64,000 bases of DNA, taken from NCBI GenBank assembly GCA_964509605.1, contig CAZDXF010000001.1, forward strand, positions 79,619 to 143,618. The letters are read 5' to 3'. Below are positions 18,501-48,072 of this stretch, in pieces. Position numbers and translations under genes: made by a program. How positions within the stretch are numbered: the stretch's first letter is position 1; each line of letters starts with the position of its first letter. The stretch is from an uncultured Candidatus Saccharibacteria bacterium. Lineage in GTDB: Bacteria; Patescibacteriota; Minisyncoccia; Phycocordibacterales; Zambryskibacteraceae. The notes under the pieces are model-generated. The model saw only the letters and a list, made by a program, of their open reading frames with translations, made no database searches and was not told the origin of the DNA.

Positions 18501-18857
18501 TTATCTCTTAGCTATTTCAGTGTATTTAGCCCAACAGTTTGAAGATGCAAGCCAAGGTCTAGCTCCTTCTCTTTCGTAGAGATATCTGGCATAAGCCATA
18601 TTCCCTTCAAGAGAGTGGATGTCATACCCGAGCTTTTTGGACTTCTCAAGGTGAAAATACTCGTTTATCTGCATTACTCCTACGTCATATCGATTCTCAA
18701 TCCCCCTAAGAACGCTTCCGTTCTTGTTGAATTGTCTGAAACTAGACTCGCAGTATGCGATATCGATCATTATTGGAATATCCGAAAAATATTTCGTAAC
18801 CAATTGTTCAGTTGTGAGAGGTGCTTCTTCTTTCTGTTCTTCGACTACCGCTTCCAC
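18501..18857 (-). CDS. Lytic transglycosylase (SLT/GEWL-like domain)
   Basis: Catalytic-region motifs AYCESSFRQF...GVMQIN...AYARYL. Upstream to ~18960 the frame stays open and encodes a signal-peptide-like stretch (KFIFNLATVGILAVVSGFS) with no ATG. The true start is probably a non-ATG codon upstream. Confidence 0.7.
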   Translation of the reverse strand: MEAVVEEQKEEAPLTTEQLVTKYFSDIPIMIDIAYCESSFRQFNKNGSVLRGIENRYDVGVMQINEYFHLEKSKKLGYDIHSLEGNMAYARYLYEREGARPWLASSNCWAKYTEIAKR

Positions 18858-19249
18858 TTTCTGTAAAGAAAGAGTGGAAGAATCGGCTGGAAGAGAAAGT
18901 GTGCTAAACCCGGAAACGACTGCTAAGATTCCTACGGTTGCAAGATTAAATATAAATTTAAAGGTTAGGAATAATTCTGGTTTTCGCTTCTAAAAAAGAA
19001 GCCGGAAGTCAGAAAAATTTCTGTTCTTTTCCATATCACGACTATATTGAGTTTGGAAAAGCAAAAATCCAGCTCTTCACTGGACTAACACAATTGTAGC
19101 AGGTTTCATTAAAAAAGTCAATGACTTTTATGTATTTTATAGTATAATAATCCTTATTTTAAGCCATATTTTTATTATTTTAAATTAGACAATTTTTATC
19201 ATTTTTTGTCCAAAATCAATTTTTTCTGATTTTTAAAAATTTTCTTCAA

Positions 19250-19690
19250 AAAACCACCCATTCCGACTGTATCGGCGGGCGGTTTTATCACCTACGGAGT
19301 CATTTTAACCGTAGGAACTGGCAGAGGACCCGCTTTCAAAGAGTCTTTCGACATTGAAAGCAAGTTCTGCAAGGTATCAAAGATCGCGAGGAGGGTGTTT
19401 TCAAGCCCCGCGAATATTCTCGGAACCAAAAACTTGAGCATGACTATGGCGAGCCCAAACGCCACAACTTGTAGTATTTTCATACTAATTTCGTTGAGAG
19501 GTGCTTGGTTGCGGTCCGACAGAACCGCACTTGCCCTAATCAGGCGCCCCCCTCTTGTCAGTGGACTAGTTTTTAGCTTCTAGGTGTTAGCTTTAGAGCG
19601 AATCCAGAGACAAGAAGGGGGGTTTTCGGTAATTTCAAATATCTTCAGTATTTATATAACACACTTTAACCAAAAATGCAAGTAAATGAC
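19250..19690 (-). other. GC-rich stand-alone transcription unit, either a small membrane-protein gene or a structured ncRNA
   Basis: Minus-strand promoter-like TTGCAT-N17-TATATA at ~19655-19685. A 13-bp G/C stem-loop lies near the 5' end. A strong terminator (CCGCCCGCCGA..UCGG..GGGUGG + U6) lies at 19256-19290. About 50% GC in a 35% GC genome. It contains the 63-aa ORF 19292..19483. Confidence 0.45.
19292..19483 (-). CDS. Possible small membrane protein (63 aa) within the GC-rich unit
   Basis: MKILQVVAFGLAIVMLKFLVP... has a TM-like N-terminus. There is no Shine-Dalgarno sequence, and an anti-SD-like CACCUC lies upstream. The alternative is that the locus is noncoding RNA. Confidence 0.3.
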   Translation of the reverse strand: MKILQVVAFGLAIVMLKFLVPRIFAGLENTLLAIFDTLQNLLSMSKDSLKAGPLPVPTVKMTP

Positions 19691-20572
19691 TTAAACAACT
19701 ACTCCCTCCACCTTTTCTTTGCATTTTTCTCCACAAAAAACACCTTTTTCTGTCTCACAAGATTCACAAACTAGAAAATGAGCGTTGCATTCTTTATTTT
19801 TACAATTCACATATTTCTCCGTTGGAGATTCACAAATGTCACACTTCCCTACTACCGTATGATTGTCTGGGCTATCAAAGTCCACCGCAATTCTTTTATC
19901 AAAAACATAAAGTTTCCCTTTGAAAGCTTGGTTTGGAAACTTTTTCATATAGCTCACTATGCCATTTTCAAGCTGATAAACATCTTTAAATCCTTTTTTA
20001 ATTAAATATCCAGAAGCTTTTTCGCATCTCACACCGCCAGTACAAACAGAGAGAACCGATTTCTCTTTTACTTCCTCAAGATTAGAAACTACTTTGGATA
20101 AATCTCTAAAATTATCCATTTTAGGATTTATGGAATTTTCAAAGTGCCCAATCTTGTATTCATAATCATTGCGCATATCCACGATTACAAAGTCTTTCCC
20201 CGACTCTATCCAATTTTGTAGTTCATCTGCCGAAAGGTGCTTGCCTGTAGACTCCCAAGGTTTTACATCTTCACTCCCTAGATGCGCAGACACTATTTCT
20301 TTTCTTAGCTTTACAGAAAGTTTTGGAAAGGATTCACCTTTACTTTCATCTATCTTAAAGTTCATATCAGCAAATCTTTCATCAGAAGAAAGAATTCTCA
20401 TATACTCCTCTGTTGCCTCTTTCGTGCCCTCTACAGTGCCATTTATACCCTCACCGGCCACAATAATCCTGCCCTTAAGATCCAAGCGCTCACAAATATC
20501 TCTCTGTGATTTCATCAGAGATTCTGGATCTTCTATAGGCACATATTTGTAATATAGAAGTATTTGGTGCAT
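19691..20572 (-). CDS. trhO: Rhodanese-domain protein, TrhO/YceA (UPF0176) family
   Basis: N-terminus MHQILLYYKY, a central rhodanese domain with the active Cys, and a C-terminal Cys-rich zinc ribbon. Confidence 0.8.
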   Translation of the reverse strand: MHQILLYYKYVPIEDPESLMKSQRDICERLDLKGRIIVAGEGINGTVEGTKEATEEYMRILSSDERFADMNFKIDESKGESFPKLSVKLRKEIVSAHLGSEDVKPWESTGKHLSADELQNWIESGKDFVIVDMRNDYEYKIGHFENSINPKMDNFRDLSKVVSNLEEVKEKSVLSVCTGGVRCEKASGYLIKKGFKDVYQLENGIVSYMKKFPNQAFKGKLYVFDKRIAVDFDSPDNHTVVGKCDICESPTEKYVNCKNKECNAHFLVCESCETEKGVFCGEKCKEKVEGVVV

Positions 20573-24962: not shown

Positions 24963-25005
24963 TTTAAAAAATATTTTCTAAATTATATCATTTTCACAAC
25001 TTTTT

Positions 25006-25031
25006 ATTTCGTTCGATATATCGAACGAAAT
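25006..25031. promoter_or_regulatory. Perfect 26-bp palindrome ATTTCGTTCGATATATCGAACGAAAT (putative operator) abutting the -35 of the downstream GC-rich gene
   Basis: An exact palindrome. A TTGACTTTTTT-N16-TATAAA promoter follows within 12 bp. Confidence 0.5.
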
Positions 25032-25119
25032 TTACGATGGATATTGACTTTTTTTATATATTTAGTATAAAAAAGATAGACATGTTCTAATCAAACTCAA
25101 TACTCAACGGGGAGGAAAA

Positions 25120-25953
25120 ATGAGAAGGCTCCAGAATTGGTTCAGGAAAATAGGTTCGAAAAAAGTTCTGATTGCCGTGATTGGCGTCGTTTTCGGTACC
25201 TTCCTTGGTTCCTTTTTTACTTTCATGTTTGGTCCAGTCATGGGTCTCGTGCCGGGTCTCGTTATCGGTATCATCGGAGGTCTCTTCCTAGGTCTCTTCT
25301 GGGGTTTTGGATCCACCCTCGGCGTTCTTTTAGCTGTTGCTGTGTGGTTATATCCCGGTCCAATGATTTACACTTGGTTGATGGTAACTTTGTCGCTCGT
25401 CATTAAGAGCTGGTTCTTGGTAAGGGGAGAAATGAGGTGGAAAAAGATAATCTGTACAGAGAATGCTCAACACTACCCTTCCCTTTCCGACCTGAGGCAA
25501 AGCTCTCTTCGGCTGATTGAAGTAGAGGGATTCTCCGTTTTTAAGAAAAAGGCGGAGGAGGTGTACCTAGATCTACCGAAGATCGCCCGAGAGCTCTTAG
25601 ATCTGCATTCCGCCTACAACAAAAGCACTTCCCAAATCAAGACAGAGATGTACAGAGGTGAAATACTTAAGACTGTCGAGAGACTTCTGGAGATGAACGA
25701 GATATTCTCCCAAGAACTCGTCCGTCTTGAGCGTGAACAACCGAGTAGAGAAGCTGACGAATCAAAGATTGTAGTTTCCAAGCTCGCCACAATAGGCGGT
25801 CTTGAAGACACTCTTGATGAACTTCGTCGCCTCAGAGATGGAATGGTTGAAGCGGAAGATGAAACACCTCAAGGCACAGCTCTTGAAAGAGAGATTGATG
25901 GCTTGAAGCAAGCTTCCCCATTGCCGTTTCCTCGCGTGAAAGGCAACTACTAG
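25120..25953 (+). CDS. Hypothetical membrane protein (glycine-zipper-rich 3-TM N-terminus plus cytoplasmic coiled-coil domain); GC-rich cassette gene
   Basis: GGGGAGG Shine-Dalgarno sequence. GxxxG-rich TM helices followed by a ~170-aa charged helical domain. About 50% GC. Own promoter and terminator. Confidence 0.6.
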   Translation: MRRLQNWFRKIGSKKVLIAVIGVVFGTFLGSFFTFMFGPVMGLVPGLVIGIIGGLFLGLFWGFGSTLGVLLAVAVWLYPGPMIYTWLMVTLSLVIKSWFLVRGEMRWKKIICTENAQHYPSLSDLRQSSLRLIEVEGFSVFKKKAEEVYLDLPKIARELLDLHSAYNKSTSQIKTEMYRGEILKTVERLLEMNEIFSQELVRLEREQPSREADESKIVVSKLATIGGLEDTLDELRRLRDGMVEAEDETPQGTALEREIDGLKQASPLPFPRVKGNY

Positions 25954-25954
25954 A

Positions 25955-25999
25955 ACCCCCACGATAACCCCCGCAGGTTGTCGTGGGGGTTATCTTTTT
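25955..25999 (+). terminator. Rho-independent terminator
   Basis: CCCCCACGA...UCGUGGGGG stem followed by UUAUCUUUUUU. Confidence 0.6.
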
Positions 26000-26039
26000 T
26001 ATTTATTAAAATTAATTACAAAGTTTTCCATTTCGTTCA

Positions 26040-26065
26040 ATATATCGAACGAAATGGACTTCTAA
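26040..26065. promoter_or_regulatory. Second copy of the 26-bp palindrome (one mismatch: ATTTCGTTCAATATATCGAACGAAAT)
   Basis: Same sequence as 25006..25031 except G->A at one position. It lies ~70 bp upstream of the next GC-rich ORF. Confidence 0.5.
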
Positions 26066-26133
26066 ATTTATTTCTTTGTGATAGTCTTCTCGAAAGAAAT
26101 TTGCTCTAAACCAAATCCCCCCATGGAGGCTAT

Positions 26134-26382
26134 ATGCCGATGAAGAAGAAGCCCGGCAAGAAGCTCACGCGAAAGCCGAGAAAACCCAAGAATCCACCAA
26201 AAGGTGATTTTGGCAAGGGGTTCGATGACGGTCTCGCCGGGAAATCTCCCATGCTAACAAGTGATAAGTATATCGAGGGATATCGTCTCGGACGAGCAAG
26301 GAGACGGGCAGATATGATTTACCACAACCACGGAGTTCTTAACCCTCGATATCCAGAATACTTGGATGAGGAATTTAAGTAA
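26134..26382 (+). CDS. Hypothetical small, highly basic protein (82 aa); GC-rich cassette gene
   Basis: GGAGG Shine-Dalgarno sequence 5 nt upstream. N-terminus KKKPGKKLTRKPRKPKNPPKG. Followed by a perfect 15-bp-stem terminator. Confidence 0.5.
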   Translation: MPMKKKPGKKLTRKPRKPKNPPKGDFGKGFDDGLAGKSPMLTSDKYIEGYRLGRARRRADMIYHNHGVLNPRYPEYLDEEFK

Positions 26383-26394
26383 CCAAAACCACAC

Positions 26395-26437
26395 CCCGCA
26401 CGGTCGTAGCGCTACGACCGTGCGGTTTCTGTTTTTT
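26395..26437 (+). terminator. Rho-independent terminator (15-bp perfect palindromic stem + U-tract)
   Basis: CCGCACGGUCGUAGC/GCUACGACCGUGCGG followed by UUUCUGUUUUUU. Confidence 0.65.
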
Positions 26438-26450
26438 CTCTTCTGTCTAC

Positions 26451-26500
26451 TTATTACTGTTTACTAATTACTATCTATTAACTCCTGCCTACTATTTTAG
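26451..26500. repeat. TACTGTTTACTAATTACTATCTA...CCTACTATTTTAG motif, copy a of a 3-member repeat family
   Basis: Related copies lie at 34467..34535 and 38600..38637. Each lies just after a GC-rich terminator and overlaps or abuts the stop codon of a convergent minus-strand gene. Confidence 0.5.
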
Positions 26501-26974
26501 TCCCTTACAATTAGAAGCTGGTACATAACCAGCTTTTCTCGCCTCTTCTATTGAAGCGAAAGTTATTTTATTTTCTTCTGCAATTCTTTTTGCGCCCGAA
26601 CACCATGGATAATGATACTTATCACTATTTTTGGAACCAACAACAATTCCATTTTCCTGACTTTCAATTTCATTTTTTATAGTTTTTTGAATTTCTGAAG
26701 AATTGAGCTCGTCTAAAGATAGAACTGCGGAAGCCGAACTATTATCAAAAAACAGCACTTCCGGAGCCGTCTTCTGATCTTTATAAAAAGACAATCTTCC
26801 CAAACCAAAAGAGCCCAGAGCGACCAAAATAATCAAAACTCCTAAAAATAAGTGTTTTTTGACATCATCCCCCCTATCTTTTGGCTCCAAATCAAAAACC
26901 TCCTCTTCATAATTAGCCTTGTTTTGAGGGTCATCTAGGGGGTTGATTTTATTTGACTCTTCTTTTATACTCAT
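26492..26974 (-). CDS. Membrane-anchored protein with C-terminal Ada-N-terminal-like (sunset-like) metal-binding domain
   Basis: One TM helix and a C-terminus KYHYPWCSGAKRI...FASIEEARKAGYVPASNCKG, which resembles the Ada zinc-binding pattern (x..CRPSC...F.S..EA..AGFRPCKRC). Confidence 0.55.
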   Translation of the reverse strand: MSIKEESNKINPLDDPQNKANYEEEVFDLEPKDRGDDVKKHLFLGVLIILVALGSFGLGRLSFYKDQKTAPEVLFFDNSSASAVLSLDELNSSEIQKTIKNEIESQENGIVVGSKNSDKYHYPWCSGAKRIAEENKITFASIEEARKAGYVPASNCKGLK

Positions 26975-26976
26975 CC

Positions 26977-27110
26977 CGTTAGAAGCAGGTCGCGGTCAAG
27001 CGATCTGAGGATTGAAAATAGGTTGTTAATTATCTAATATTTATACTTCTTAATGGTCTGTTTCCTGTTATAACCACGACTGTGGCTTCTAACGGGACTC
27101 ATATCCTGTA
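26977..27110 (+). promoter_or_regulatory. Structured leader upstream of rpmA, closed by a 12-bp long-range inverted repeat
   Basis: CCCGTTAGAAGC (26977-26988) pairs with GCTTCTAACGGG (27099-27110), enclosing ~110 nt directly upstream of the L27 gene. Confidence 0.35.
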
Positions 27111-27153
27111 TTAATCAGCTTATAGGCAAAAACCTAAAGCATCAAGTAAAGCA

Positions 27154-27426
27154 ATGGCATCGAAAAAAGCAGCTGGATCAACAAAAAACGGAAGAGATTC
27201 CAATCCGAAATATCTCGGAATCAAAGTAAGCCCAGGAGCACTAGCTTCTGTTGGTTCTATTTTGGTACGACAAAGAGGAACCGATGTACTCCCTGGTAAA
27301 AATGTTGGTATGGGAAGAGACCACACCCTATTTGCTCTCAAGAATGGAAAGGTGGAAATGAGTCACAAAAGAAAGACTCACTTTGACGGCAAAATAATCA
27401 GAAAGAAAATAATAAGCGTAAACTAG
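27154..27426 (+). CDS. rpmA: 50S ribosomal protein L27
   Basis: [24 protein letters not shown]...VRQRGT...[15 protein letters not shown] is a canonical L27. Confidence 0.9.
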
Positions 27427-27429
27427 AAA

Positions 27430-27460
27430 AACCCTCCAATAAATTGGAGGGTTTTTTGAA
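27430..27460 (+). terminator. Rho-independent terminator
   Basis: AAAAACCCTCCAATAAATTGGAGGGTTTTTTG. Confidence 0.65.
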
Positions 27461-27540
27461 TTTGACTTTTTTGAATGAGATTGTTATAAAAGCTCGAGCT
27501 GTTCTGCAGGAAACCTTCTGCCCCCAAAAGGAGCTGGACT

Positions 27541-27918
27541 ATGCATCTAGCAACCGCAGGTGAAGCGAAGGCACAGTTTATGACAATCCTCATGAGTGAA
27601 GCGGTATCAACAGATGCTATCCTGTCTCTCATCGAGGATATCGAAGCCGGACAAGTGGTGGGTCGAGATTGCGAGAGATGTCCAATCGCTCTTCTCGCCT
27701 ACTACTCTGAGAAGACCTACGAGTCTTTTCGAAGGAGGTTCGGATTTTCTCCCAACTGGAGAGAGAATCCGTTTGAGGTTTTCGTACAGGGAATCTTCTC
27801 CGGACACACTCCGGCGAAAAACTCTGATCTGGCCCATGTCCTCGTGTGGTGCGACGAAGCGCTTATCATGAGGGCCGAGCGAAGTGTGCTGGAAACCTCA
27901 GAGGTCCTCGCTTCCTGA
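27541..27918 (+). CDS. Hypothetical protein (125 aa); GC-rich cassette gene
   Basis: TTGACTTTTTT-N16-TTATAA promoter at ~27466-27498. AAAGGAG Shine-Dalgarno sequence. About 55% GC. A GC hairpin terminator follows. No motif recognised. Confidence 0.5.
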   Translation: MHLATAGEAKAQFMTILMSEAVSTDAILSLIEDIEAGQVVGRDCERCPIALLAYYSEKTYESFRRRFGFSPNWRENPFEVFVQGIFSGHTPAKNSDLAHVLVWCDEALIMRAERSVLETSEVLAS

Positions 27919-27927
27919 ATCAATTCA

Positions 27928-27960
27928 AAAGGCCGTCCCGATGTACCGGGACGGCCTTTC
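27928..27960 (+). terminator. Rho-independent terminator
   Basis: AAAGGCCGTCCCGATGTACCGGGACGGCCTTTC. Confidence 0.6.
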
Positions 27961-27967
27961 AACTTTA

Positions 27968-28411
27968 TTATTTAGCTTTTACTGAGAGTTTAAATTTAAC
28001 TGAAGCGTCTTGAACACTCACTTCTATTTCGTGCTCGCCCACTTCTTTTATGGGCTTCTCCAAAATAATGTGTTCTGGCAGAATTTCTAATCTTGTCTGT
28101 CTTTCAAGCTCGACTACAATCTCTTCTTTGTGAATTCCGGCAAAAAGATGCCCCTGTTCATTTGCAGTTTCTTCCATTTCAAGCACCACACCCTCAAGTG
28201 AGTGAAGATTCTTTGAAAGCAAGTCTTCCTGAATTTTTCGATTCTCTTCCTCTTTGGTCTTCAAATCTTCCAACTTCTTAATAGCTCCACCCAAAGCCGG
28301 CTCTGCAATACCTTTAGGAATTAAAAAATTCAAAGCGTATCCGTCAGAAACTTCCTTTACATCATATTTTTTGCCAAGTTTGGCAACATTTTTAAGCAAA
28401 ATAACCTGCAT
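27968..28411 (-). CDS. rplI: 50S ribosomal protein L9
   Basis: MQVILLKNVAKLGKKYDVKEVSDGYALNFLIPKG is the canonical L9 N-domain. Confidence 0.9.
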   Translation of the reverse strand: MQVILLKNVAKLGKKYDVKEVSDGYALNFLIPKGIAEPALGGAIKKLEDLKTKEEENRKIQEDLLSKNLHSLEGVVLEMEETANEQGHLFAGIHKEEIVVELERQTRLEILPEHIILEKPIKEVGEHEIEVSVQDASVKFKLSVKAK

Positions 28412-36934: not shown

Positions 36935-37423
36935 GTGCTGACACTTTCCGCATGTTCCTTTGACATCCAAGTGAGCTCGATGAGTTTGAGTAGGGTCATA
37001 ACCGCTGGAGATTACGATGTCCTGCACCCTCACATCGGGAAAATAGACCTTTCTGTCTGTGACGTGCCCCTCAGTACCAAGGACAGTGGTGTCCGCGTCA
37101 TAAGCTTTGCAACGGTGCGATCCTTAAACGGCAAAGCCGAAGAAGCATACAGGTGTTTCAAAAAGTTCAAAAAGAAACGATTGGCATTGCTTCGCGAATT
37201 TCTTCACATCGGAGTTTGCAAGCCGGAAATTCAAAGGTTCTATCAGATCTTTTGTCTTACGGCGATGTTTCCAGTAAGAAGGTTGAATGGCAAGTGGACC
37301 TCAGTCGTCCTGTTTCTTGATACGGACAAACTCGGAAGAAGGTGTATCGGTCTGCACGATATAGAGAACCCTCTGCCAATGAGTGCTGTGGTTGCCTATG
37401 TGCAATACCCAGAAGTAAGCTGA
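36935..37423 (+). CDS. Hypothetical protein (162 aa); GC-rich cassette gene (GTG start)
   Basis: GGAGG Shine-Dalgarno sequence 4 nt before the GTG. About 50% GC. Own TTGATT...TATACT promoter and a terminator at 37445-37490. No motif recognised. Confidence 0.5.
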   Translation: MLTLSACSFDIQVSSMSLSRVITAGDYDVLHPHIGKIDLSVCDVPLSTKDSGVRVISFATVRSLNGKAEEAYRCFKKFKKKRLALLREFLHIGVCKPEIQRFYQIFCLTAMFPVRRLNGKWTSVVLFLDTDKLGRRCIGLHDIENPLPMSAVVAYVQYPEVS

Positions 37424-37444
37424 CCATCACCAGCGTATCCAGAC

Positions 37445-37490
37445 AGCCCTGGCCCGTTTTAAACGGACCAGGGCTTGCTCTTTTTCATTA
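37445..37490 (+). terminator. Rho-independent terminator
   Basis: CAGCCCUGGCCCGUUUUAAACGGACCAGGGCUUGCUCUUUUUC. Confidence 0.6.
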
Positions 37491-37579
37491 TCCACAGTTT
37501 CTTGACTTTTTCTTTAAAATATGATAGTATTAAGATCGGAAAGCTCCACTACACTCTAACCGAGGGAAGGAGGGGGGGT

Positions 37580-37849
37580 ATGATTCCCCAGGTTTCGTTC
37601 CAAGACCTCGTAAAAGAGGTCAAGGAGCGCCACATTTCGACCGGTGCTCCTCTCACCCTGCTGGTGGGAGAGGCACTCGCAAGATGTGGTACTGCTGATC
37701 CAGAAGCGAAGTGCAAGCTTCTGTCGGCGGTCGTAGGCGAAGTCCCCTCTTGGAAGCAGGTTCGGAGGGGACTCGTGGAAGAACGGCGGGGCCGTAGTGG
37801 CGTGGTATATCGCGCCGAAAACGGCTTCCAGCCAGAGCGGGACGACTAG
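37580..37849 (+). CDS. Hypothetical protein (~90 aa); GC-rich cassette gene
   Basis: Canonical TTGACTTTTT-N17-TAGTAT promoter at ~37501-37535. GGAGGGGGGG Shine-Dalgarno sequence. A hairpin terminator overlaps the stop (GGGACGACUAGUACAGUCGUCCC + U-tract). Coordinates are ±1 nt. Confidence 0.45.
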   Translation: MIPQVSFQDLVKEVKERHISTGAPLTLLVGEALARCGTADPEAKCKLLSAVVGEVPSWKQVRRGLVEERRGRSGVVYRAENGFQPERDD

Positions 37850-37971
37850 TACAGTCGTCCCGTATTTTTTATTTTAAAAATTAAAAAGCGCGCCGTTGAC
37901 TAACTAAATATTTTATACTATTGTTTGCGCTAGCAGTTCCTAAACAAACAAAAACTACTTTGGAGGTATAT

Positions 37972-38544
37972 ATGTCCACCGAAGGACAGACCAACGACTC
38001 AGCCAACGAGCTGATTCGAAGTTTTCCGAAGGACAGAAGGCTCTTTTTGGGCGACACGGTGGATGCAAAAGAGTCTCGCAGACTCATTTCAAGCATCGTA
38101 TCGCTCTCTGCAACTGAAGACCCAATTCTTCTTACCATCAATTCTGGTGGAGGAGGTTTTTGGGAAGGACACTATCTCTATGATGCAATCAGGGTGTGTC
38201 CAGTATCTGTCACAGGTCTTGTGATTGGTACGGCCTCGTCTGTGGCTTGCGTTATCCTGCAGGCCTGCAATCGAAGATTGATCACCAAACACTCCAGAAT
38301 TCTGGTTCACCCTCCGTCTTTCAGAGGAGATGTGGAGTTTGACATTCACTCTGACAACGAGAGGACTCTCCGAGAAATGCGACACTGGTACAAGGAATTC
38401 AGGCGCAATGTGAGGAGAACTGAAGAACTCCTTCTCAATCATTGCAACCTGAACAGGAACCAGCTTCGCAGTCTTATGGAAAAGGAACTGTATCTCGAGT
38501 CTGACGAAGCGCTAAAAATGGGCTTCGTGGATGAAGTGGTTTAG
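37972..38544 (+). CDS. ClpP-family serine peptidase (S14), stand-alone; GC-rich cassette gene
   Basis: RLFLGDTVD...LTINSGGG...YDAI...GTASSVACVIL (Ser)...SRILVHPP (His)...ESDEALKMGFVDEV (Asp) aligns to the ClpP catalytic triad. GGAGG Shine-Dalgarno sequence, TTGACT promoter, and a GC hairpin terminator. About 50% GC. Confidence 0.8.
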   Translation: MSTEGQTNDSANELIRSFPKDRRLFLGDTVDAKESRRLISSIVSLSATEDPILLTINSGGGGFWEGHYLYDAIRVCPVSVTGLVIGTASSVACVILQACNRRLITKHSRILVHPPSFRGDVEFDIHSDNERTLREMRHWYKEFRRNVRRTEELLLNHCNLNRNQLRSLMEKELYLESDEALKMGFVDEVV

Positions 38545-38550
38545 GTTTGG

Positions 38551-38590
38551 AAAGTGCCCGCGACGCCTTGGCGTCGCGGGCCTTTCTCTT
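38551..38590 (+). terminator. Rho-independent terminator
   Basis: AAAGTGCCCGCGACGCCTTGGCGTCGCGGGCCTTTCTCTTTTTC. Confidence 0.65.
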
Positions 38591-38599
38591 TTTCTTATT

Positions 38600-38637
38600 T
38601 TCTGTCCACTGTCTACTAACTATTGTCTACTATCTTA
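38600..38637. repeat. TCTGTCCACTGTCTACTAACTATTGTCTACTATCTTAA motif, copy c
   Basis: Matches copies a and b. It overlaps the stop codon of the convergent Ogt-like gene. Confidence 0.5.
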
Positions 38638-38881
38638 AATACCCCTCTTCAATAAGCTTTTTTCTCTTTGCAAAATTTCCGCCATTGTACCCTCCAATTT
38701 TTCCATCGCTTTTGACAACTCTATGACACGGAATTTTTGAATCGTGATTTTTATTTAAAATATTCCCTACTGCTCTGTATGCTTTTGGTTTCCCCGAAAG
38801 CTGTGCAACCTCTTTGTAAGTCAAAACTTTTCCGCGAGGGATCTTCTTTACCACTGAATATACTTTTTCTTGAAATGTCAT
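38630..38881 (-). CDS. Methylated-DNA-protein-cysteine methyltransferase family protein (DNA-binding/active-site domain only, 83 aa)
   Basis: TYKEVA...AVGNILNKNHDSKIPCHRVV carries the PCHRV active-site motif. It lacks the N-terminal domain. Confidence 0.8.
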   Translation of the reverse strand: MTFQEKVYSVVKKIPRGKVLTYKEVAQLSGKPKAYRAVGNILNKNHDSKIPCHRVVKSDGKIGGYNGGNFAKRKKLIEEGYLR

Positions 38882-38946
38882 AAATTAATAATAACAAACC
38901 CCCGCCGAGACAAAATCTCGGCGGGGGGCCAGTAATTCGTTCGGGC

Positions 38947-39267
38947 TCAAGCCCTCTGCGAAGCCGAGGCTCCGCTTCGCTTCCTCTGCCTTCTCACCCT
39001 CGGATGAAAACGCCACTTGCGAATGGCCCCACCCCCACGCTGGACAAAAACTCCGAAGCGCAGAGACCTCTCCCCTTCAAGCATCTGAACAATCTTGTGG
39101 GGCATCTCCCAGAGATTTCTCCTCTCCCCGTCACCGCAGAGCTTGTCCATATGGAGATTCTCTTCGCAGACGATCTGGGCGATGACTTGGTTGGTGTGAC
39201 TGTCCATCGGCTCCACGAACCAGCGATACTCCCGCCTCTTCTTCTCCAACAAATATCTCGTCGGCAT
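38947..39267 (-). CDS. Hypothetical protein (106 aa); GC-rich cassette gene
   Basis: About 58% GC. GGAGGAG lies immediately upstream of the ATG. A strong terminator (CCCCCGCCGAGA/UCUCGGCGGGGG + UUUGUU) lies downstream at ~38895-38935. Overlapping alternative-frame ORFs make the frame call tentative. Confidence 0.4.
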   Translation of the reverse strand: MPTRYLLEKKRREYRWFVEPMDSHTNQVIAQIVCEENLHMDKLCGDGERRNLWEMPHKIVQMLEGERSLRFGVFVQRGGGAIRKWRFHPRVRRQRKRSGASASQRA

Positions 39268-39329
39268 TTCTCCTCCAAGGTGGAAGTGTGGTGTTCAACT
39301 CTATTTACAATACGATTTTTATATAAAAA

Positions 39330-39370
39330 ATCAAATAAATAAAAACACTGCGCAATTTGAATTGCGCAGT
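39330..39370. terminator. Bidirectional terminator (12-bp perfect stem flanked by A5/T5), plus a second hairpin at 39386-39410
   Basis: AAAAACACTGCGCAATTTGAATTGCGCAGTGTTTTT, followed by CGTGTCGACCTGGCAGGTCGACACG. Confidence 0.55.
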
Positions 39371-39416
39371 GTTTTTATCACCAACCCGTGTCGACCTGGC
39401 AGGTCGACACGCTTTT

Positions 39417-39800
39417 CTATTTAAACCATTCTCTAAAACTTTTTGGCCAACCCACAAGCAAAAGAAGAGCAAGTGGGGCTCCCCAGTTTGACCACCTTTC
39501 AACAAAGTCCCAAATCGGATCAGGTCCGACTGGCCAGCGAATCATTGCTGTCCACAAGCCCCAGATAGCCATCCAAAGCAATGCAATCCTAATTGGCTTT
39601 ATCAATACCAAAATAGCAAGCGCTATATCCAAAATACCAACAATAAGCAAAAGTGTTGTAATTGTCTCTGGATTATTTATACCTACTGAATAAAAATACT
39701 TAAACCAACCCTCTTTCCCCTGCAGAGCGAACATGCCGTGTCCAAAAAATGAACCGGCCGTAGCAATCCGCAAAACCCACATAGCAGATTTTGTATTCAT
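39417..39800 (-). CDS. DoxX-family membrane protein
   Basis: Four TM helices. N-terminus VLRIATAGSFFGHGMFALQGK is typical of DoxX. Confidence 0.7.
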   Translation of the reverse strand: MNTKSAMWVLRIATAGSFFGHGMFALQGKEGWFKYFYSVGINNPETITTLLLIVGILDIALAILVLIKPIRIALLWMAIWGLWTAMIRWPVGPDPIWDFVERWSNWGAPLALLLLVGWPKSFREWFK

Positions 39801-39901
39801 ATTTTTAAATTACTAATAATTAATACCTCTTGTATAAATTGTACCCCCGATTGTATTGAGCCCTGTGAATACAGAAAAATAACTTAGTGTAGAATTAGAT
39901 T

Positions 39902-40159
39902 ATGGAAAATACAAAAGAAGAGAAAGAGTTGATAGATAAAACAACAGAAAAAGTATTAGATGTCTTGGGTAAAAGCCGACCGGTAAAGCACATCCGCAGG
40001 AGCCAAATAATGTCCGCGCTTGCTGGTGCCATCGGCTTTGCATTGTTTATAGACGGAGTAAGTAAAATGTTTGAGGATTTTTCCGCTATTTCTACCCTTT
40101 CAATCGGCTTAGTTTTGATGCTTGCAACAGGACTTCTCTTAAAAAATTTGTATAGATAG
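39902..40159 (+). CDS. Small hypothetical membrane protein (85 aa)
   Basis: Two hydrophobic helices and AT-rich native codon usage. Confidence 0.4.
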   Translation: MENTKEEKELIDKTTEKVLDVLGKSRPVKHIRRSQIMSALAGAIGFALFIDGVSKMFEDFSAISTLSIGLVLMLATGLLLKNLYR

Positions 40160-40175
40160 AGATCTCATCACCAGA

Positions 40176-40195
40176 CACGACCCTACCGGGAATCG
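40176..40195. repeat. Direct repeat of the 3' end of tRNA-Glu (19/20 identical to 40356..40375), att-like
   Basis: CACGACCCTACCGGGAATCG versus CATGACCCTACCGGGAATCG. The upstream copy has no complete tRNA body. Confidence 0.5.
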
Positions 40196-40357
40196 GTCAC
40201 AAGTCCAATTCATTCTGAATTGGCTCGCGACCCCGACTCGGCAACCCCGCCCTCTAATTAGAGGGCGGGGGCTTCGCGCCTCTGTCTTTCGATTCCCAGT
40301 ATGGAACCCTGTGGGTACTAAAAATCCGATGCTCTCGCATCGGATCTTAAGTACCCA

Positions 40358-40429
40358 TGACCCTACCGGGAATCGAACCCGGCTTTGGAGCTTGAGAAGC
40401 TCCCGTCCTAACCGATAGACGATAGGGCC
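40358..40429 (-). tRNA. tRNA-Glu (anticodon CUC)
   Basis: Manual cloverleaf. Acceptor GGCCCUA/UAGGGUC, D-arm GUCU/GGAC with a GG loop, anticodon stem GGAGC/GCUCC with loop UUCUCAA, T-arm CCGGG-UUCGAUU-CCCGG, discriminator A. No encoded CCA. Confidence 0.85.
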
Positions 40430-40527
40430 GTTAAACAGAAGTTAAGAATAAAGAAATAAGAATGAAGAATCAAGAAGTGCTAAAAATCTTTCACCATTCG
40501 CCTTTCGATATTCATTATTCTCCCGCT

Positions 40528-41820
40528 TCAGCGCGCCTTCCATTCCTCCTCCTGCCTGCAAAGCAAAATTTCCTTTTTTTCGGGATGAGCCATCACCTCT
40601 TCTACCGCTTTTTCCATTCTCACCCCCTGCGAACCCTTTATCAAAACAACATCTCCGGACCCCACAATAAGCCCTACTTGTTTTCCTGCTGAAACAGAGT
40701 CTTCAAATTGAAATATCTTTTCTCCCGACATACCAGCATTTATAGCGCCTTCGGCAAAAAACCTTGCACGCACTCCCGCCGTTATTAAGACATCGCAAAT
40801 TTCGGCACACCTCTCCCCCGCTTTTTTGTGTTCTTCAGTAGAGTGAACTCCAAGCTCAAGCATATCTCCAAGCACAGCAATCTTCTTGCCGTTAACTTTT
40901 ATTTCACTCAAAGTATTTAACGCTTCTTCAAGAGCAACAGGAGAAGAGTTGTAAGAATCATCTATAATCACAGATTCTTTAACCCCAGAAATAAGTCTCA
41001 TCCTTCCAGGAGGCAAAGAAAAATCTTCAAACGCTTTGGCCATCTTTTTTAGAGGAAAGTCCAAAGCGTGCCCCACCGACAATCCGGCCAGAGCTATGTA
41101 CATTTGTTGCAAGCCAAGCGCGCCTTTAATAAAAACATCGGCAGTCTCATCCAAATGTACCGCTCTAAAAGAAACTCCCACAGGCCTCCCTTCTTCATTA
41201 TAAGTAATATGAAAATTCTCCCCTCTTATTGTTGCTAAATCATTTTTACCAAAAAATATTTTTTTGTTTTCAGTCAGCCCCTGAAAAGAGTAAACGTCTT
41301 CGTCATCTGAATTTAAAATAGCAATACCCCCTTTGCTCATATTTCTAATCAGGAAACTTTTTTCCTGAAGCACTTCCCCCACCGATCTAAAATATTCAAC
41401 ATGCACGGGAATCTTTGAAAGCTTAGTAACAACAGAAATATCGGGCTTCAGCCACTCTGTCACAACCTGAATATCTCTGGGCCTATCTGCGCCAACTTCC
41501 AAAACAAGCCAGTCCGGATAGTGATTTGGCAATAAAATTAGAGCAAAACCGTCCAAAATGTTTTTAAGCCACCCCAGGGGATTATTCCAAGCATTCGGAC
41601 AATTTAAAATAGTGAGAGGAACTCCAATTTCGCTGTTAAAACTTTTATTGCTTTTTCTAACATAAACAAATTTATTCAAAACAGCATCAATGGCATCTTT
41701 GGTACCAGTTTTCCCAACACTTCCTGTAACCGCAACAATTTTGGGCTTATATTTTCTAAGTACTGCCTTGGCCTGCCAAGTTATTATTGCAACTATTATT
41801 GATTTAAAAACCGATTTCAT
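40528..41820 (-). CDS. murF: UDP-MurNAc-tripeptide--D-Ala-D-Ala ligase MurF
   Basis: Mur ligase P-loop VTGSVGKTGTKD and Mur ligase middle and C-terminal domains. It lies in the dcw block. Confidence 0.9.
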   Translation of the reverse strand: MKSVFKSIIVAIITWQAKAVLRKYKPKIVAVTGSVGKTGTKDAIDAVLNKFVYVRKSNKSFNSEIGVPLTILNCPNAWNNPLGWLKNILDGFALILLPNHYPDWLVLEVGADRPRDIQVVTEWLKPDISVVTKLSKIPVHVEYFRSVGEVLQEKSFLIRNMSKGGIAILNSDDEDVYSFQGLTENKKIFFGKNDLATIRGENFHITYNEEGRPVGVSFRAVHLDETADVFIKGALGLQQMYIALAGLSVGHALDFPLKKMAKAFEDFSLPPGRMRLISGVKESVIIDDSYNSSPVALEEALNTLSEIKVNGKKIAVLGDMLELGVHSTEEHKKAGERCAEICDVLITAGVRARFFAEGAINAGMSGEKIFQFEDSVSAGKQVGLIVGSGDVVLIKGSQGVRMEKAVEEVMAHPEKKEILLCRQEEEWKAR

Positions 41821-44895: not shown

Positions 44896-45354
44896 TTAGA
44901 ACACTCCTATCTCGCCGAGCTTTTCTGCAGCAGAGTCGGCTTGTTTTTCAATACGCCTGCTGTAGTCGCTCCACTCTTTGTCGTTCCATATTTCAACTCT
45001 GTTATAGACTCCCGCCAAGACCACTTTGCTTTTCAAATTTGCATAGTCTCGCAAAAAGTCAGGAATCAAAATACGACCGACAGAATCAACTTCGACCTCA
45101 CTCGCTCCGGCAAGCATGAAGCGTGCAATGTCTCGCTGATCTCTTGAACCCATGAGAAGACTGCCAAGTTTTTTTGCCATTTCATTCCAAACATTTGAAG
45201 TAAACACAAAAAGACAGGCATCGAAGCCTCTTGTTACGATAATTTTTTTTCCAAGATCTCGGCGAAACTTGGAGGGGAGAGATATTCTCTTTTTATCGTC
45301 GACGACATGTGTGTATTCTCCAATAAATGTCATAGCAAATTCCACTTTTCCCAC
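44896..45354 (-). CDS. mraZ: Transcriptional regulator MraZ
   Basis: FIGEYTHVVDDKKRISLPSKFR with duplicated SpoVT/AbrB-like halves. It is the first gene of the dcw block. Confidence 0.9.
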   Translation of the reverse strand: MGKVEFAMTFIGEYTHVVDDKKRISLPSKFRRDLGKKIIVTRGFDACLFVFTSNVWNEMAKKLGSLLMGSRDQRDIARFMLAGASEVEVDSVGRILIPDFLRDYANLKSKVVLAGVYNRVEIWNDKEWSDYSRRIEKQADSAAEKLGEIGVF

Positions 45355-45444
45355 TTCTTCCCACTTAACTACAAGTGTAAAACACTTACTCCCACTCAGT
45401 GAAACTTTTTATCCACATTTTTGGTGAACTTCCGTTCACTAATA

Positions 45445-45490
45445 AAAAGAAAACCCACACGACACCTGGAATGGTGTCGTGTGGGAATTT
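45445..45490 (-). terminator. Rho-independent terminator of the GC-rich three-gene operon
   Basis: On the minus strand: CCCACACGACACCAUUCCAGGUGUCGUGUGGG + UUUUCUUUUU. Confidence 0.65.
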
Positions 45491-45505
45491 AGGAACAACT
45501 TTGTA

Positions 45506-47284
45506 TCAAACGCCAACGGTGAGACGACGCTTCTTTGTCGCCACCTTTTTGGACTGAGACTTGCCATCGGAAGACTTCTGATCCTTAACGTTGCTGTCAA
45601 GAATCTTCTTGCCACGACGTCCTCCAAACTGACGCCCGGCGATGGTATCGCCGTGAATCAGCATGAAAACGTACGGGGCATAGGTCTCCTCCAACACAAG
45701 TTCTGCGAACGGCGCCCAATCGCTCGGGGCGGCCCGGAGAGCCAGCGCCTGTAGCATGACATACTCCTGGAAACGCATCAGAGTTCTGTCACTGTGCTCT
45801 TCGCACTGTTGCCACAGAGGGTGCAGAACATTAATCCTCAGGGTGCCGGTTTCCTCTTCCAATACCCAGAGTCGGTCGCTTCCCTGAATAGCATCATGCA
45901 CCAACTGAAGTCCGAGACTGTTGCTACGGACAATCGTTCGGCGTGTGCCTTTTGGACCAACGACCGTCATGGGACGGTGTTCTGGACGTTCCTTCTCGGG
46001 TTCAAAGTTCTCATTACCCTCACCCTCACCATTTGAGGGCTTCTCGGGACGAAGGTTATTGACGGCCAGAGACGTTTCCGGAGAAGGACTTCCCTTCTTT
46101 TCGAAATGCCCAGGTCCAATCGAACCCTTCTTGAAAGACTCAATGGCCTTGAGAAGCCCAGCAAACTGCGGCCTCTTCAACATCTCTTCGATGACTTTCA
46201 TCGAACGAATGCCGAGTTGCTGGTAGCGCTCCTCTTGCCGCTGATCATTAGCGTCCTGATAATGCTCGGCGCCGTGTTCAGCGAACCACTTTTCGAGGAT
46301 CACACAGAAACCAACCAGCGACTCGTCGGCCTCAAACGACCGGCGACTGGCGTGGAGTGTGATTGCACTGTTGAGGACCTCACCCTCGAAAAGACCAGAA
46401 CCCAGAGCAGACACAAGCTCATCCGAGAGCTTACACGCCTCCGGCAAGGACCGATTGAATGTCGAGAAGTTCAGACGAAAATCGTTGTCCTTCTCGCCAA
46501 CCAAGACCTTACCATTGCGCTTACCCTTCTTATCCTTCTGGGCCAAGAAGAGTCGGAAGTGGGTCTGCCCCGACTCCCTGTCTCGATAATCGACCTCTTC
46601 CAGCTTCCTGCCAGTGAAGTCCTTGGCCCTGATTTCACAACTCTGCCGTTCACCGTCTTCATCGACGACAGTCAACTCAATCACCGACTGGTTCTTACGC
46701 ATGGTGGAAGCGAAACGCTCCAACACACCATCACGAAGGGAATCCATAGTCACGATGTTGATCTGTCGATCGGTCGTGAACCCTTCGATTCTCACCTCAG
46801 TACGCCAGCGAACAGAGGACACTCCACGAACCACTCGCGTCTCTGCCCGAGAAAACTGCAGATCGAGGCGCTCCCTCATGGGGATGCCTTCGATCTTCTG
46901 CTGTTTCAGGAGATCGTCGGTAACGAAGCTCCACTCCAAGAAACCCTTGGGGTTCCGCTTGGTAGTGGAGGTAAAGATGAATCGAGCACACTTGCCCAAT
47001 GGCGAGATAAGCCCAAGACCAAAGCGTCCCAATTTATCCTTCTTCTTGATGGAAGAGGAAACGCTGGTCAGGGCCTTTTCAAACTCTTGCTGACTCACTC
47101 CATCTCCATCATCGCGGACAGCGATCTGACGCTGCTTCTGATTCACAACGATGGTGATAACCTGAGCTCCCTTGTCGAGACAGTTTTGCACGCTCTCGAG
47201 CAAGACATCCAGGATCCTAGGGTAGTACCCCGCAAGTTTGAGCAGGGCCGCTCCCTCATGAAAACTAAAAGGGCTCTGTTTCAC
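45506..47284 (-). CDS. GHKL-superfamily ATPase (MORC/MutL/Hsp90-like Bergerat fold) with unknown C-terminal domains; third gene of the GC-rich operon
   Basis: N-box ESVQNCLDKGA (ExxxNxxD), G1 RDDGDGV, and G2 LGRFGLGLIS, followed by ~450 aa without recognised motifs, including an E/G-rich linker. GTG start with an AAAGGAGA Shine-Dalgarno sequence. About 55% GC. Confidence 0.7.
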   Translation of the reverse strand: MKQSPFSFHEGAALLKLAGYYPRILDVLLESVQNCLDKGAQVITIVVNQKQRQIAVRDDGDGVSQQEFEKALTSVSSSIKKKDKLGRFGLGLISPLGKCARFIFTSTTKRNPKGFLEWSFVTDDLLKQQKIEGIPMRERLDLQFSRAETRVVRGVSSVRWRTEVRIEGFTTDRQINIVTMDSLRDGVLERFASTMRKNQSVIELTVVDEDGERQSCEIRAKDFTGRKLEEVDYRDRESGQTHFRLFLAQKDKKGKRNGKVLVGEKDNDFRLNFSTFNRSLPEACKLSDELVSALGSGLFEGEVLNSAITLHASRRSFEADESLVGFCVILEKWFAEHGAEHYQDANDQRQEERYQQLGIRSMKVIEEMLKRPQFAGLLKAIESFKKGSIGPGHFEKKGSPSPETSLAVNNLRPEKPSNGEGEGNENFEPEKERPEHRPMTVVGPKGTRRTIVRSNSLGLQLVHDAIQGSDRLWVLEEETGTLRINVLHPLWQQCEEHSDRTLMRFQEYVMLQALALRAAPSDWAPFAELVLEETYAPYVFMLIHGDTIAGRQFGGRRGKKILDSNVKDQKSSDGKSQSKKVATKKRRLTVGV

Positions 47285-47301
47285 TGCAGTCTCCTTTTTG
47301 C

Positions 47302-48072
47302 TTATTGCTGGTGGTTGTTGACAAGCTCGCGAGCCTTCTCACTACAGAGTCGACTCGACGCTTTCGACAGGCGAAACATACCATCAGATCCAGTCCGCTT
47401 ACGCAGCTCGTTACGTTGTTCTCGACTGGTTTCAGAAACCGCCCTTTCAAGAAGAGGGGTGATAGCCAAAACCAGATGAGCCAAGACCTCAATTGAAATT
47501 GGGTCTTGTTTCTCAAGATCGAGTGCGCCTTTTGCTACTTGAGTAACTGGTGTACTGGGGGGGTCCGTCTCAACATAAATCTTGATTGACGGAACCCGCA
47601 TCAAAACGCTAAGCAGGGTGGCCTTTTTCTTTGCCAACTCTTCCCCTGCTTCCCCATAGAGCCTTTCTACCTTCTGCGTTCTGGCAGTGTTGGTATCAGA
47701 ATCCGCACGAGCCAAGCGAAATACGCTGTGCGTATCACCGAAACCAAGATGTTCACGGGCTTCTTCTGGCGTCAAAATATCGTACGCCAAAAGCTCGGCT
47801 AGCTTGTGACTGACATGATCAGTACCATGCACATATTCCACAAGCTCGTACCCAACCGCTTCGAGAAATAGACGAAGCTTGATCAGTGGCTCTCCCAACG
47901 GAACATTTCGACCATAAATCCAGGCCGATACCGTGTCAGGATGAACGCGCACAAACTCAACCAGTGGCAATTTCGCCTTGCCAGCTTCCTTGCTACCTTT
48001 CGGTGGTAGAGAATGTTCGGCAAAATGTGCCAAACACTCAATTGTGGTGCCTCGAAACAGTTTACTCATCAC
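47302..48072 (-). CDS. Hypothetical helical protein (256 aa); second gene of the GC-rich operon
   Basis: AAGGAG Shine-Dalgarno sequence 6 nt upstream. About 55% GC. It lies 17 bp upstream of the GHKL ATPase gene. Confidence 0.6.
   Translation of the reverse strand: MMSKLFRGTTIECLAHFAEHSLPPKGSKEAGKAKLPLVEFVRVHPDTVSAWIYGRNVPLGEPLIKLRLFLEAVGYELVEYVHGTDHVSHKLAELLAYDILTPEEAREHLGFGDTHSVFRLARADSDTNTARTQKVERLYGEAGEELAKKKATLLSVLMRVPSIKIYVETDPPSTPVTQVAKGALDLEKQDPISIEVLAHLVLAITPLLERAVSETSREQRNELRKRTGSDGMFRLSKASSRLCSEKARELVNNHQQ

Follow-up and report, generated by a model that had tools for sequence, protein, structure and literature searches.

The minus strand between positions 19250 and 19690 of a 64,000-nucleotide stretch of DNA from an uncultured Candidatus Saccharibacteria bacterium (the whole stretch is referred to here as the window) carries a GC-rich unit of about 400 nt, and the question it raises is whether this unit is a gene for a small hydrophobic protein or a structured RNA. 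The initial annotation had offered the two readings as alternatives: either a cassette encoding a small membrane peptide behind a riboswitch-like leader, or one of the missing housekeeping RNAs.

Read along the minus strand, the unit consists of a promoter, a leader of ~165 nt, an ORF of 63 codons and a hairpin terminator followed by U6. The promoter can be read directly from the sequence and lies where it had been proposed (19653–19681), with a -35 box TTGCAT (19681–19676), a 17-nt spacer and a TG-extended -10 box TATATA (19658–19653). It sits 10 nt past the stop codon of a gene for a TrhO-type rhodanese (19691–20572, minus strand), and near-consensus promoters of the form CTTGAYW...TGnTATAAT were found at the equivalent spot of the homologous loci. 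From the position of the promoter, transcription would start at ~19646 (minus strand). A conserved block, UUGAAA (19633–19638, minus strand), lies near this presumed 5' end and is present in most leaders at a variable spacing from the -10 box; no pairing partner or role for it was found among the leaders. The strong terminator noted previously was also recovered. It is formed by ACCGCCCGCCGA...UCGGAAUGGGUGGU and U6 (19248–19283, minus strand), a 16-bp hairpin present in the MFE fold that a simple terminator scan overlooked because its stem is bulged. Of the 12 homologs examined, 10 have a hairpin and a U-run of at least 5 nt after the stop codon.

The G+C fraction of the unit is 0.46 versus 0.36 in its flanks, and homologous units exceed their flanks by 0.00–0.11, the exception being one locus (L021) with 0.42 versus 0.43. 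When compared with dinucleotide shuffles, the 401-nt unit had a folding z of -9.1, and the transcripts of 12 homologs gave values from -3.5 to -10.4. This strong foldedness spans the whole transcript, including the variable 3' half. With a promoter and a terminator of its own, the region is most likely a self-contained expression cassette of ~400 nt.

The ORF was found at its proposed position (19292–19483, minus strand; 63-aa protein MKILQVVAFGLAIVMLKFLVPRIFAGLENTLLAIFDTLQNLLSMSKDSLKAGPLPVPTVKMTP), directly preceded by the end of the leader, ...GCACCUCUCAAC..., and its conservation was followed in 53 related loci, three from an initial protein search and a further 50 from genome and metagenome collections. 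The frame is open in all 53, in one of which it runs off the contig. At each locus examined, the other two frames hold stops and the coding frame has only its own terminal stop. Entropies at the three codon positions are 0.70, 0.34 and 1.18, so that variation is concentrated at third positions, and 48 % of the codons that differ are synonymous in this frame versus 13 and 4 % in the other two. This pattern of substitution indicates that the ORF is a real gene under purifying selection at the protein level. The small membrane peptide proposed earlier is borne out by this coding signature and by a predicted hydrophobic helix. AlphaFold returned a single helix covering residues 2–49, with pLDDT >90 to residue 40 and a disordered tail thereafter, and the hydrophobic N-terminal half with its amphipathic extension fits a predicted single-pass membrane anchor.

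The lack of an SD had been held against the ORF. This carries no weight, as 40 of the 50 long ORFs in the window also have no SD-like motif within 20 nt of the first ATG, which was taken as the start throughout, so that some starts may be misplaced. Upstream regions are A-rich, and the genome appears mostly to initiate translation without an SD. As such starts are normal here, an unstructured start region should matter for initiation. The leader itself does not code for protein: lengths among the loci are distributed evenly modulo 3 and in-frame stops are found in 29 of 43 leaders, which excludes both an N-terminal extension of the protein and an upstream ORF starting from the SD-like sequence described below.

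A profile search for the protein recovered 99 clusters at 90 % identity and 263 at 50 % identity, all of 46–140 aa and all either nameless or labelled 'hypothetical'. The source organism, where named, was always a Patescibacteria MAG, and the loci from genome collections also come exclusively from Patescibacteria MAGs with Paceibacterota, Parcubacteria group, Taylorbacteria, Ryanbacteria or Saccharibacteria in their titles. Members of the family are 54–70 aa long and share the amphipathic extension and a tail motif. Longer database proteins match the family only C-terminally, because the gene caller had extended the ORF upstream into the leader. No match to the 63-aa protein was found in Pfam, NCBIfam, PHROGs, PADLOC or PDB, and the literature yielded no description of this RNA or protein. 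The family is thus new and has so far been unannotated, and its sequences indicate a lineage-specific family of small, probably membrane-embedded proteins of the Paceibacteria/Parcubacteria (Patescibacteria, also called CPR), in which the protein presumably plays its role in the membrane. With 263 clusters at 50 % identity it is a sizeable addition to the known small proteins, often missed or given a wrong start by gene callers.

The leader was examined by folding 43 unique sequences independently, and in all of them two adjacent hairpins directly follow a purine tract. In the window, the purine tract forms part of a 76-nt hairpin, P1 (19547–19622, minus strand), which is present in the MFE fold. 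Its base is the 13-bp G/C stem reported earlier, in which CCCCCUUCUUGUC (19621–19609; pyrimidine arm A, anti-SD-like) pairs with GACAAGAGGGGGG (19559–19547; purine arm B, containing the SD-like AAGAGGGGGG), and its top is variable. A long hairpin of the P1 type, 42–84 nt in length, was found in all members but the atypical L018, with a consensus base of pyrimidine arm GGAA-CCUCUUUUCUU and purine arm AAGAGGGGGG. Changes on both sides were seen in 18 of the 21 modelled P1 pairs, with 90 % of cells paired, and the energy of arm A with arm B was -14.8 for cognate versus -11.8 for non-cognate combinations (0/5000 permutations). The pairing of anti-SD-like with SD-like sequence at the base of P1 is conserved at the sequence level in a genome that rarely uses an SD.

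The two hairpins that follow are shorter. P2 (GCCU-GAUUA-GGGC, 19533–19545, minus strand) forms in every unique leader and has a stem of 4–9 bp and an N-AUUA loop in which AUUA is near-invariant; all five pairs covary and 97 % of cells are paired. P3 (UGCGGUUC-UGUC-GGACCGCA, 19510–19529, minus strand) is the second hairpin of the initial annotation and likewise forms in every unique leader, with a stem of 7–10 bp, a near-invariant GUC in the loop, covariation at all nine pairs and 93 % of cells paired. The loop nucleotides of both hairpins are retained while their stems turn over. Beyond P3, a small hairpin, AGUAU-GAAA-AUACU (19473–19486, minus strand; in the MFE fold), holds the AUG (19483–19481). 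It shows G-C to A-U double changes in eight sequences, with 86 % of cells paired.

Across P1–P3, 90.9 % of cells were paired in the covariance alignment, versus 67.9 % in shuffles and 48–55 % with slid partners, and two-sided changes are seen at 34 of the 40 pairs. The alignment is biased in that it follows the structure of the model, a bias from which the single-sequence folds are free. A covariance model (R1) built from nine members, with the window left out, matched the window at 19466–19628 (minus strand; from the block upstream of P1 to AUG+17) with 70.4 bits and an E of ~1e-16. R1 gave exactly one hit per locus, always to this leader, and neither the window nor 233 kb of loci contained another copy. 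At every locus with enough upstream sequence, the ORF is accompanied by the leader. It is a conserved structured RNA with strong covariation, previously undescribed and without an Rfam family. The description of the leader as riboswitch-like was in this respect essentially right, and conservation of the ORF and covariation of the structure, which had been set against each other, were both found in the relatives.

Structure-agnostic analysis with RNAalifold of MAFFT alignments covering all clades failed to recover P1–P3, because helix lengths and registers differ between clades, and the covariance-model alignment and alignment-free energy tests were used in its place. Two other arrangements within the leader were considered and rejected. 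For kissing of the P2 loop (GAUUA) with the P3 loop (UAGUC), cognate and non-cognate energies were equal. For a proposed exchange of partners by purine arm B, from arm A to a CU-rich block C ahead of the ORF, in a switch or triple helix, the cognate test was not significant, and the B:C pairing proposed by RNAalifold was paired in 88.8 % of cells versus 88.7 % in shuffles, so this complementarity is compositional only.

In the MFE folds of 12 full transcripts, the P2 region was recurrently paired with codons 12–15 of the ORF. This was pursued with an alignment-free test, in which a leader segment was compared with its own coding region and with the coding regions of other members; such cognate/non-cognate comparisons reduce the effects of shared ancestry and do not remove them. 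When seven leader segments were scanned without bias against 17 windows, exactly two strong cells emerged, both with p<0.001, namely P2 with codons 10–16 (cognate minus non-cognate, -5.2 kcal/mol) and block C with codons 4–10 (-2.7 kcal/mol). Both contacts were re-tested in 21 clade representatives with <80 % nucleotide identity. P2 with codons 10–17 gave -15.9 for cognate and -10.3 for non-cognate combinations (0/20000 permutations; z -2.8 versus shuffled segments), and block C with codons 4–12 gave -12.8 and -10.2 (0/20000 permutations; z -1.3 versus shuffled segments). Control coding segments showed no cognate signal.

The partner of the P2 region in the window is codons 10–17 (GLAIVMLK; 19433–19456, minus strand), which are complementary to P2 and its flanks and form with them a predicted long-range duplex of 13 bp and -14.4 kcal/mol. 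Leader-CDS duplexes in the family are 13–20 bp long, and the choice of codons tracks the leader. In one clade CAG in the leader faces CUG as the codon for Leu11, in another UAG faces CUA, and in a third AGCAAGCG faces GCG-CUU-GCU. Synonymous codon choice in a region encoding a membrane helix is here clearly constrained by pairing with the gene's own leader.

The second contact involves block C (CCAAGCACCUCUCAAC, 19493–19508, minus strand), which contains the anti-SD-like CACCUC that had been noted ahead of the ORF and pairs with codons 4–11. In the register of the window this pairing was found in 71 % of cells versus 40 % with slid partners, barely above shuffles, and column-based covariation for it is weak. 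RNAalifold recovered this inner stem in a homogeneous subgroup; in the all-clade alignments, where registers differ as above, it gave no consensus helix and no single register. The two contacts are nested, and in the modelled fold they would form a three-way junction with P3, with the AUG, in its small hairpin, at the tip of a long composite stem. By these energy calculations, the leader pairs with the first 16 codons of its own gene. A further pairing, of the 5' GGAAC with codons 17–19, was predicted in a subgroup and shows a double change in the window; it was marginal overall in both the cognate test and the scan, and was not retained. Separately, a conserved ACCCUCCUC stretch at codons 29–32 (residues T-L-L; 19388–19399, minus strand) is another anti-SD-like tract. 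It is complementary to purine arm B (~-12 kcal/mol) and shows no co-variation with the leader.

The choice between ORF and RNA is thus a false dichotomy, as the unit is one mRNA in which the leader and the coding region fold together.

The local hairpin and the P2:CDS duplex are alternative states of P2 that exclude each other, each under selection of its own. When codons 1–21 were included in the calculation, the duplex dominated the equilibrium ensemble in 30 of 42 members (median per-nucleotide probability 0.61), with local P2 near 0. In the leaders alone, local P2 is stable in 42/42 cases, with a median of -5.9 kcal/mol, 4.6 better than shuffles, and its partner in codons 10–17 is not hairpin-like beyond chance. 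Local P2 is therefore selected in its own right, and would exist on the nascent RNA or while ribosomes cover codons 10–17.

The effect of these pairings on the start site was assessed from the cost of opening positions -15 to +15 around the AUG. The family median was 11.0 kcal/mol versus 7.1 for 49 other genes in the window (p = 3e-5). The distributions overlap, and for the copy in the window (9.5 kcal/mol) 11 of the 49 genes have an equal or higher cost. In simulated nascent transcripts the cost rose from 5.0 kcal/mol with the RNA extended to codon 4 to 10.3 with the RNA extended to codon 12, and the further addition of codons 10–18 changed it only from 10.3 to 10.5 (not significant). The rise over codons 5–12 and the plateau that follows imply that pairing of block C moderately occludes the start. 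As the P2:CDS duplex has no effect on opening energy, masking of the AUG does not explain its role, and this outer duplex must act otherwise, such as through compaction, protection or control of the availability of P2.

Taken with the coding status of the ORF, the covariation of P1–P3 and the co-variation of leader and coding region, this moderate occlusion leads us to favour, as the probable explanation, a self-contained cassette in which the fold of the mRNA controls the translation or stability of its own small membrane protein gene in cis. The leader would fold as P1, P2 and P3, after which block C would pair with codons 4–11 and the P2 region with codons 10–17. Two states can be envisaged: one with local P2, adopted by the leader alone, during transcription or with ribosomes over the coding region, and a second with the P2:CDS duplex as the equilibrium form of the untranslated mRNA. 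The fold would lower, and probably gate, SD-independent initiation of translation, and may also compact the mRNA against decay. From this arrangement we infer the direction of control and the existence of a trigger. Patescibacteria represent a large share of bacterial diversity and, to our knowledge, almost nothing is known of their gene regulation, so the cassette offers a tractable model for post-transcriptional gene control in an organism that mostly initiates without an SD.

A more specific proposal, which we consider possible though rather unlikely, is that the leader represents a new, Patescibacteria-specific class of RNA switch. P2 and P3 with their AUUA and GUC loops would then bind a ligand, a protein or a trans-acting RNA, and their occupancy would set whether P2 is local or captured by codons 10–17. 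As in riboswitches and other cis-regulatory leaders, there are several conserved hairpins with strong covariation and near-invariant loop nucleotides, and the predicted, mutually exclusive pairings involve the expression region. A conserved covarying structure, as expected of a riboswitch, was found in the sequences, and any aptamer is putative. Unlike known riboswitches, the leader belongs to no Rfam family, its alternative pairing partner lies inside the CDS (codons 10–17) rather than in a terminator or an SD, and its sole associated gene encodes one small protein. If such a switch exists, a cellular signal would set how much of a small membrane protein is made across Parcubacteria-type genomes, and the switching platform would lie inside the coding sequence and not at an SD or terminator.

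The folding could instead be passive, serving to shield a highly expressed small mRNA from ribonucleases with no switch involved, the 5' hairpin, an SD-like 'stabiliser', the compact body and the terminator all acting to protect the transcript. The extreme foldedness of the whole transcript, variable 3' half included, the strong promoter and terminator, the long 5' hairpin close to the transcript start and the unchanged accessibility of the start site on formation of the P2:CDS duplex are all consistent with this. In STAB-SD elements such as that of cryIIIA, an SD-like sequence accessible to ribosomes stabilises the mRNA. The leader resembles these Gram-positive 5' stabilisers in having an SD-like AAGAGGGGGG or AGGAGGGGGG 63–77 nt upstream of the start codon, adjoining a 5' hairpin and not used as the SD of the gene. 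It differs from them in that the SD-like tract is base-paired with the anti-SD-like tract in P1, and is therefore not freely available to 30S subunits in the STAB-SD manner, and in that most genes of this genome have no SD. A local P2 that is separately conserved, perfectly covarying and incompatible with the duplex, and AUUA and GUC loops that are near-invariant amid stem turnover, would also be left unexplained, and we regard passive protection as an unlikely account of the whole.

The closest likeness among described systems is to the mRNAs of type I toxins, the general features of which have been summarised (PMC11295053). In such a reading the small hydrophobic protein would be harmful when overproduced and the mRNA would be kept inert by intramolecular folding. 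Activation would follow from a slow conformational switch or from processing, such as a cut in the long P1 helix, and either a gene elsewhere would supply the antitoxin RNA or P2 would itself serve as a built-in antisense. In common with the hok, tisB, timP, aapA1, bsrG and txpA classes, the cassette specifies a predicted single-pass small membrane protein from a compact, strongly folded mRNA, here of ~400 nt (PMC11295053). Its start region is paired with both upstream and downstream sequence of the same RNA, a local hairpin confined to the time before the coding region is transcribed would give way to long-range pairing, and a standby site could be provided by the purine-rich element upstream (PMC11295053). 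The near-consensus promoter would also be in keeping with such a module. Unlike in type I systems, no antitoxin RNA gene was found, either adjacent or antisense. There is no promoter on the opposite strand inside the unit, no conserved antisense RNA was found in the unit or across the loci, and the only candidate for an antisense or divergent promoter (19121–19148, plus strand) is shared with the closest relative alone. Nor would the fold have an SD to mask, given that initiation in this organism is mostly SD-independent.

The inheritance of the gene also weighs against a toxin. It is single-copy, vertically conserved and, in part of the clade, syntenic, with purifying selection on the protein across the 263 clusters. 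The protein has no match to a toxin family in Pfam or PADLOC, and at 54–70 aa, with its amphipathic extension and tail motif, it exceeds most such toxins. The occlusion of its start is moderate and incomplete. By analogy the cassette looks to work most like a type I toxin mRNA, yet it resembles a vertically inherited core gene, and we consider it improbable that it encodes a toxin.

The last possibility is that the ORF is fortuitous and that the unit acts as a non-coding RNA with a housekeeping or regulatory function (RNase P, tmRNA, 6S or other). This reading was suggested by high G+C and strong structure in an AT-rich genome and by two short motif resemblances, and can be dismissed as extremely improbable given the unambiguous coding signature and the open frame at every locus. 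At gathering thresholds, Rfam 15 found no RNase P RNA or tmRNA in the whole window, the sole hit being a tRNA-Glu elsewhere; a permissive scan (E up to 10) of 19100–19800 gave only noise, and 20 homologous loci gave only tRNAs. ARAGORN found no tmRNA in the window, only the tRNA-Glu at 40358–40429. Both motifs named in the initial annotation are present and neither has the meaning suggested for it. The plus-strand ACAGAACC, compared there to P4 of RNase P RNA, is the complement of the covarying P3 hairpin, in a unit half of which is a conserved protein-coding frame, and UCUGGAUUCG, compared to the 5' end of tmRNA, sits in the variable top of P1. Of the two alternatives posed at the outset, the GC-rich cassette with a small membrane peptide and a structured leader stands and the missing housekeeping RNA does not.

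The genomic context of the favoured cis-controlled cassette was also examined. The gene is single-copy in the window. One clade retains TrhO, small ORF, lysozyme-like gene, VKOR and DsbA in this order, the neighbours in other clades include MltG/YceG, a pseudouridine synthase, DUF975 and DUF2585, and the upstream regions are unrelated between clades. As the neighbours are clade-specific and heterogeneous, they point to no functional partner and give no hint of a ligand. A phage origin or holin function was also rejected: the family is absent from viral contigs and PHROGs, and the lysozyme-like gene, which has its own promoter, follows in only 9 of ~40 distinct loci. The absence of a PADLOC hit likewise argues against a defence system.

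Some minor observations were made in the surroundings. In several non-syntenic loci, tRNA genes are found no more than a few hundred bases away from the cassette (L021, 2734–2805; L038, 1788–1947; L041, 2288–2358; L005, 1774–1846), a proximity that may simply reflect the tRNA density of small genomes. Higher G+C, 0.43–0.53 compared with a window average of ~0.38, was seen at 25000–28000, 37000–41000 and 45000–48000, where Rfam identified only the tRNA-Glu(CUC) mentioned above (minus strand).

The promoter of the lysozyme-like gene (TTGACT-17-TACAAT, 19121–19093, minus strand) is back to back with the plus-strand promoter-like sequence, ATGACT-16-TATAAT (19121–19148), which points toward the 3' end of the small gene and is conserved only in L001, the closest relative. 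About 30 nt upstream of the -35 box of the lysozyme-like promoter is a conserved box, ATATGGCTTAAAATAAGGA (19151–19169, minus strand), seen again in syntenic loci, with two copies in each of L015 and L019 and an inverted copy in L020; it is probably a transcription-factor site. Directly after this promoter there is a hairpin with a U-run, GUCCAG-UGAAGAG-CUGGA-UUUUU (19066–19086, minus strand), which is also present in L001, L010, L015, L019 and L020 and has a stem that covaries between loci (CUCAG/CUGAG, UUCCAG/CUGGAA). It has no match in Rfam and looks like an attenuator or a small leader RNA of the lysozyme-like gene. The lysozyme-like ORF is listed from a GTG at 18857, and the in-frame sequence upstream of it, KRKPELFLTFKFIFNLATVGILAVVSGFSTLSLPADS... 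(18858–18990, minus strand), encodes a membrane anchor that is also found in the 161-aa homolog of L001. No ATG, GTG or TTG follows the preceding TAG, suggesting that the start codon is non-canonical or that a mutation or an error in the sequence is present.
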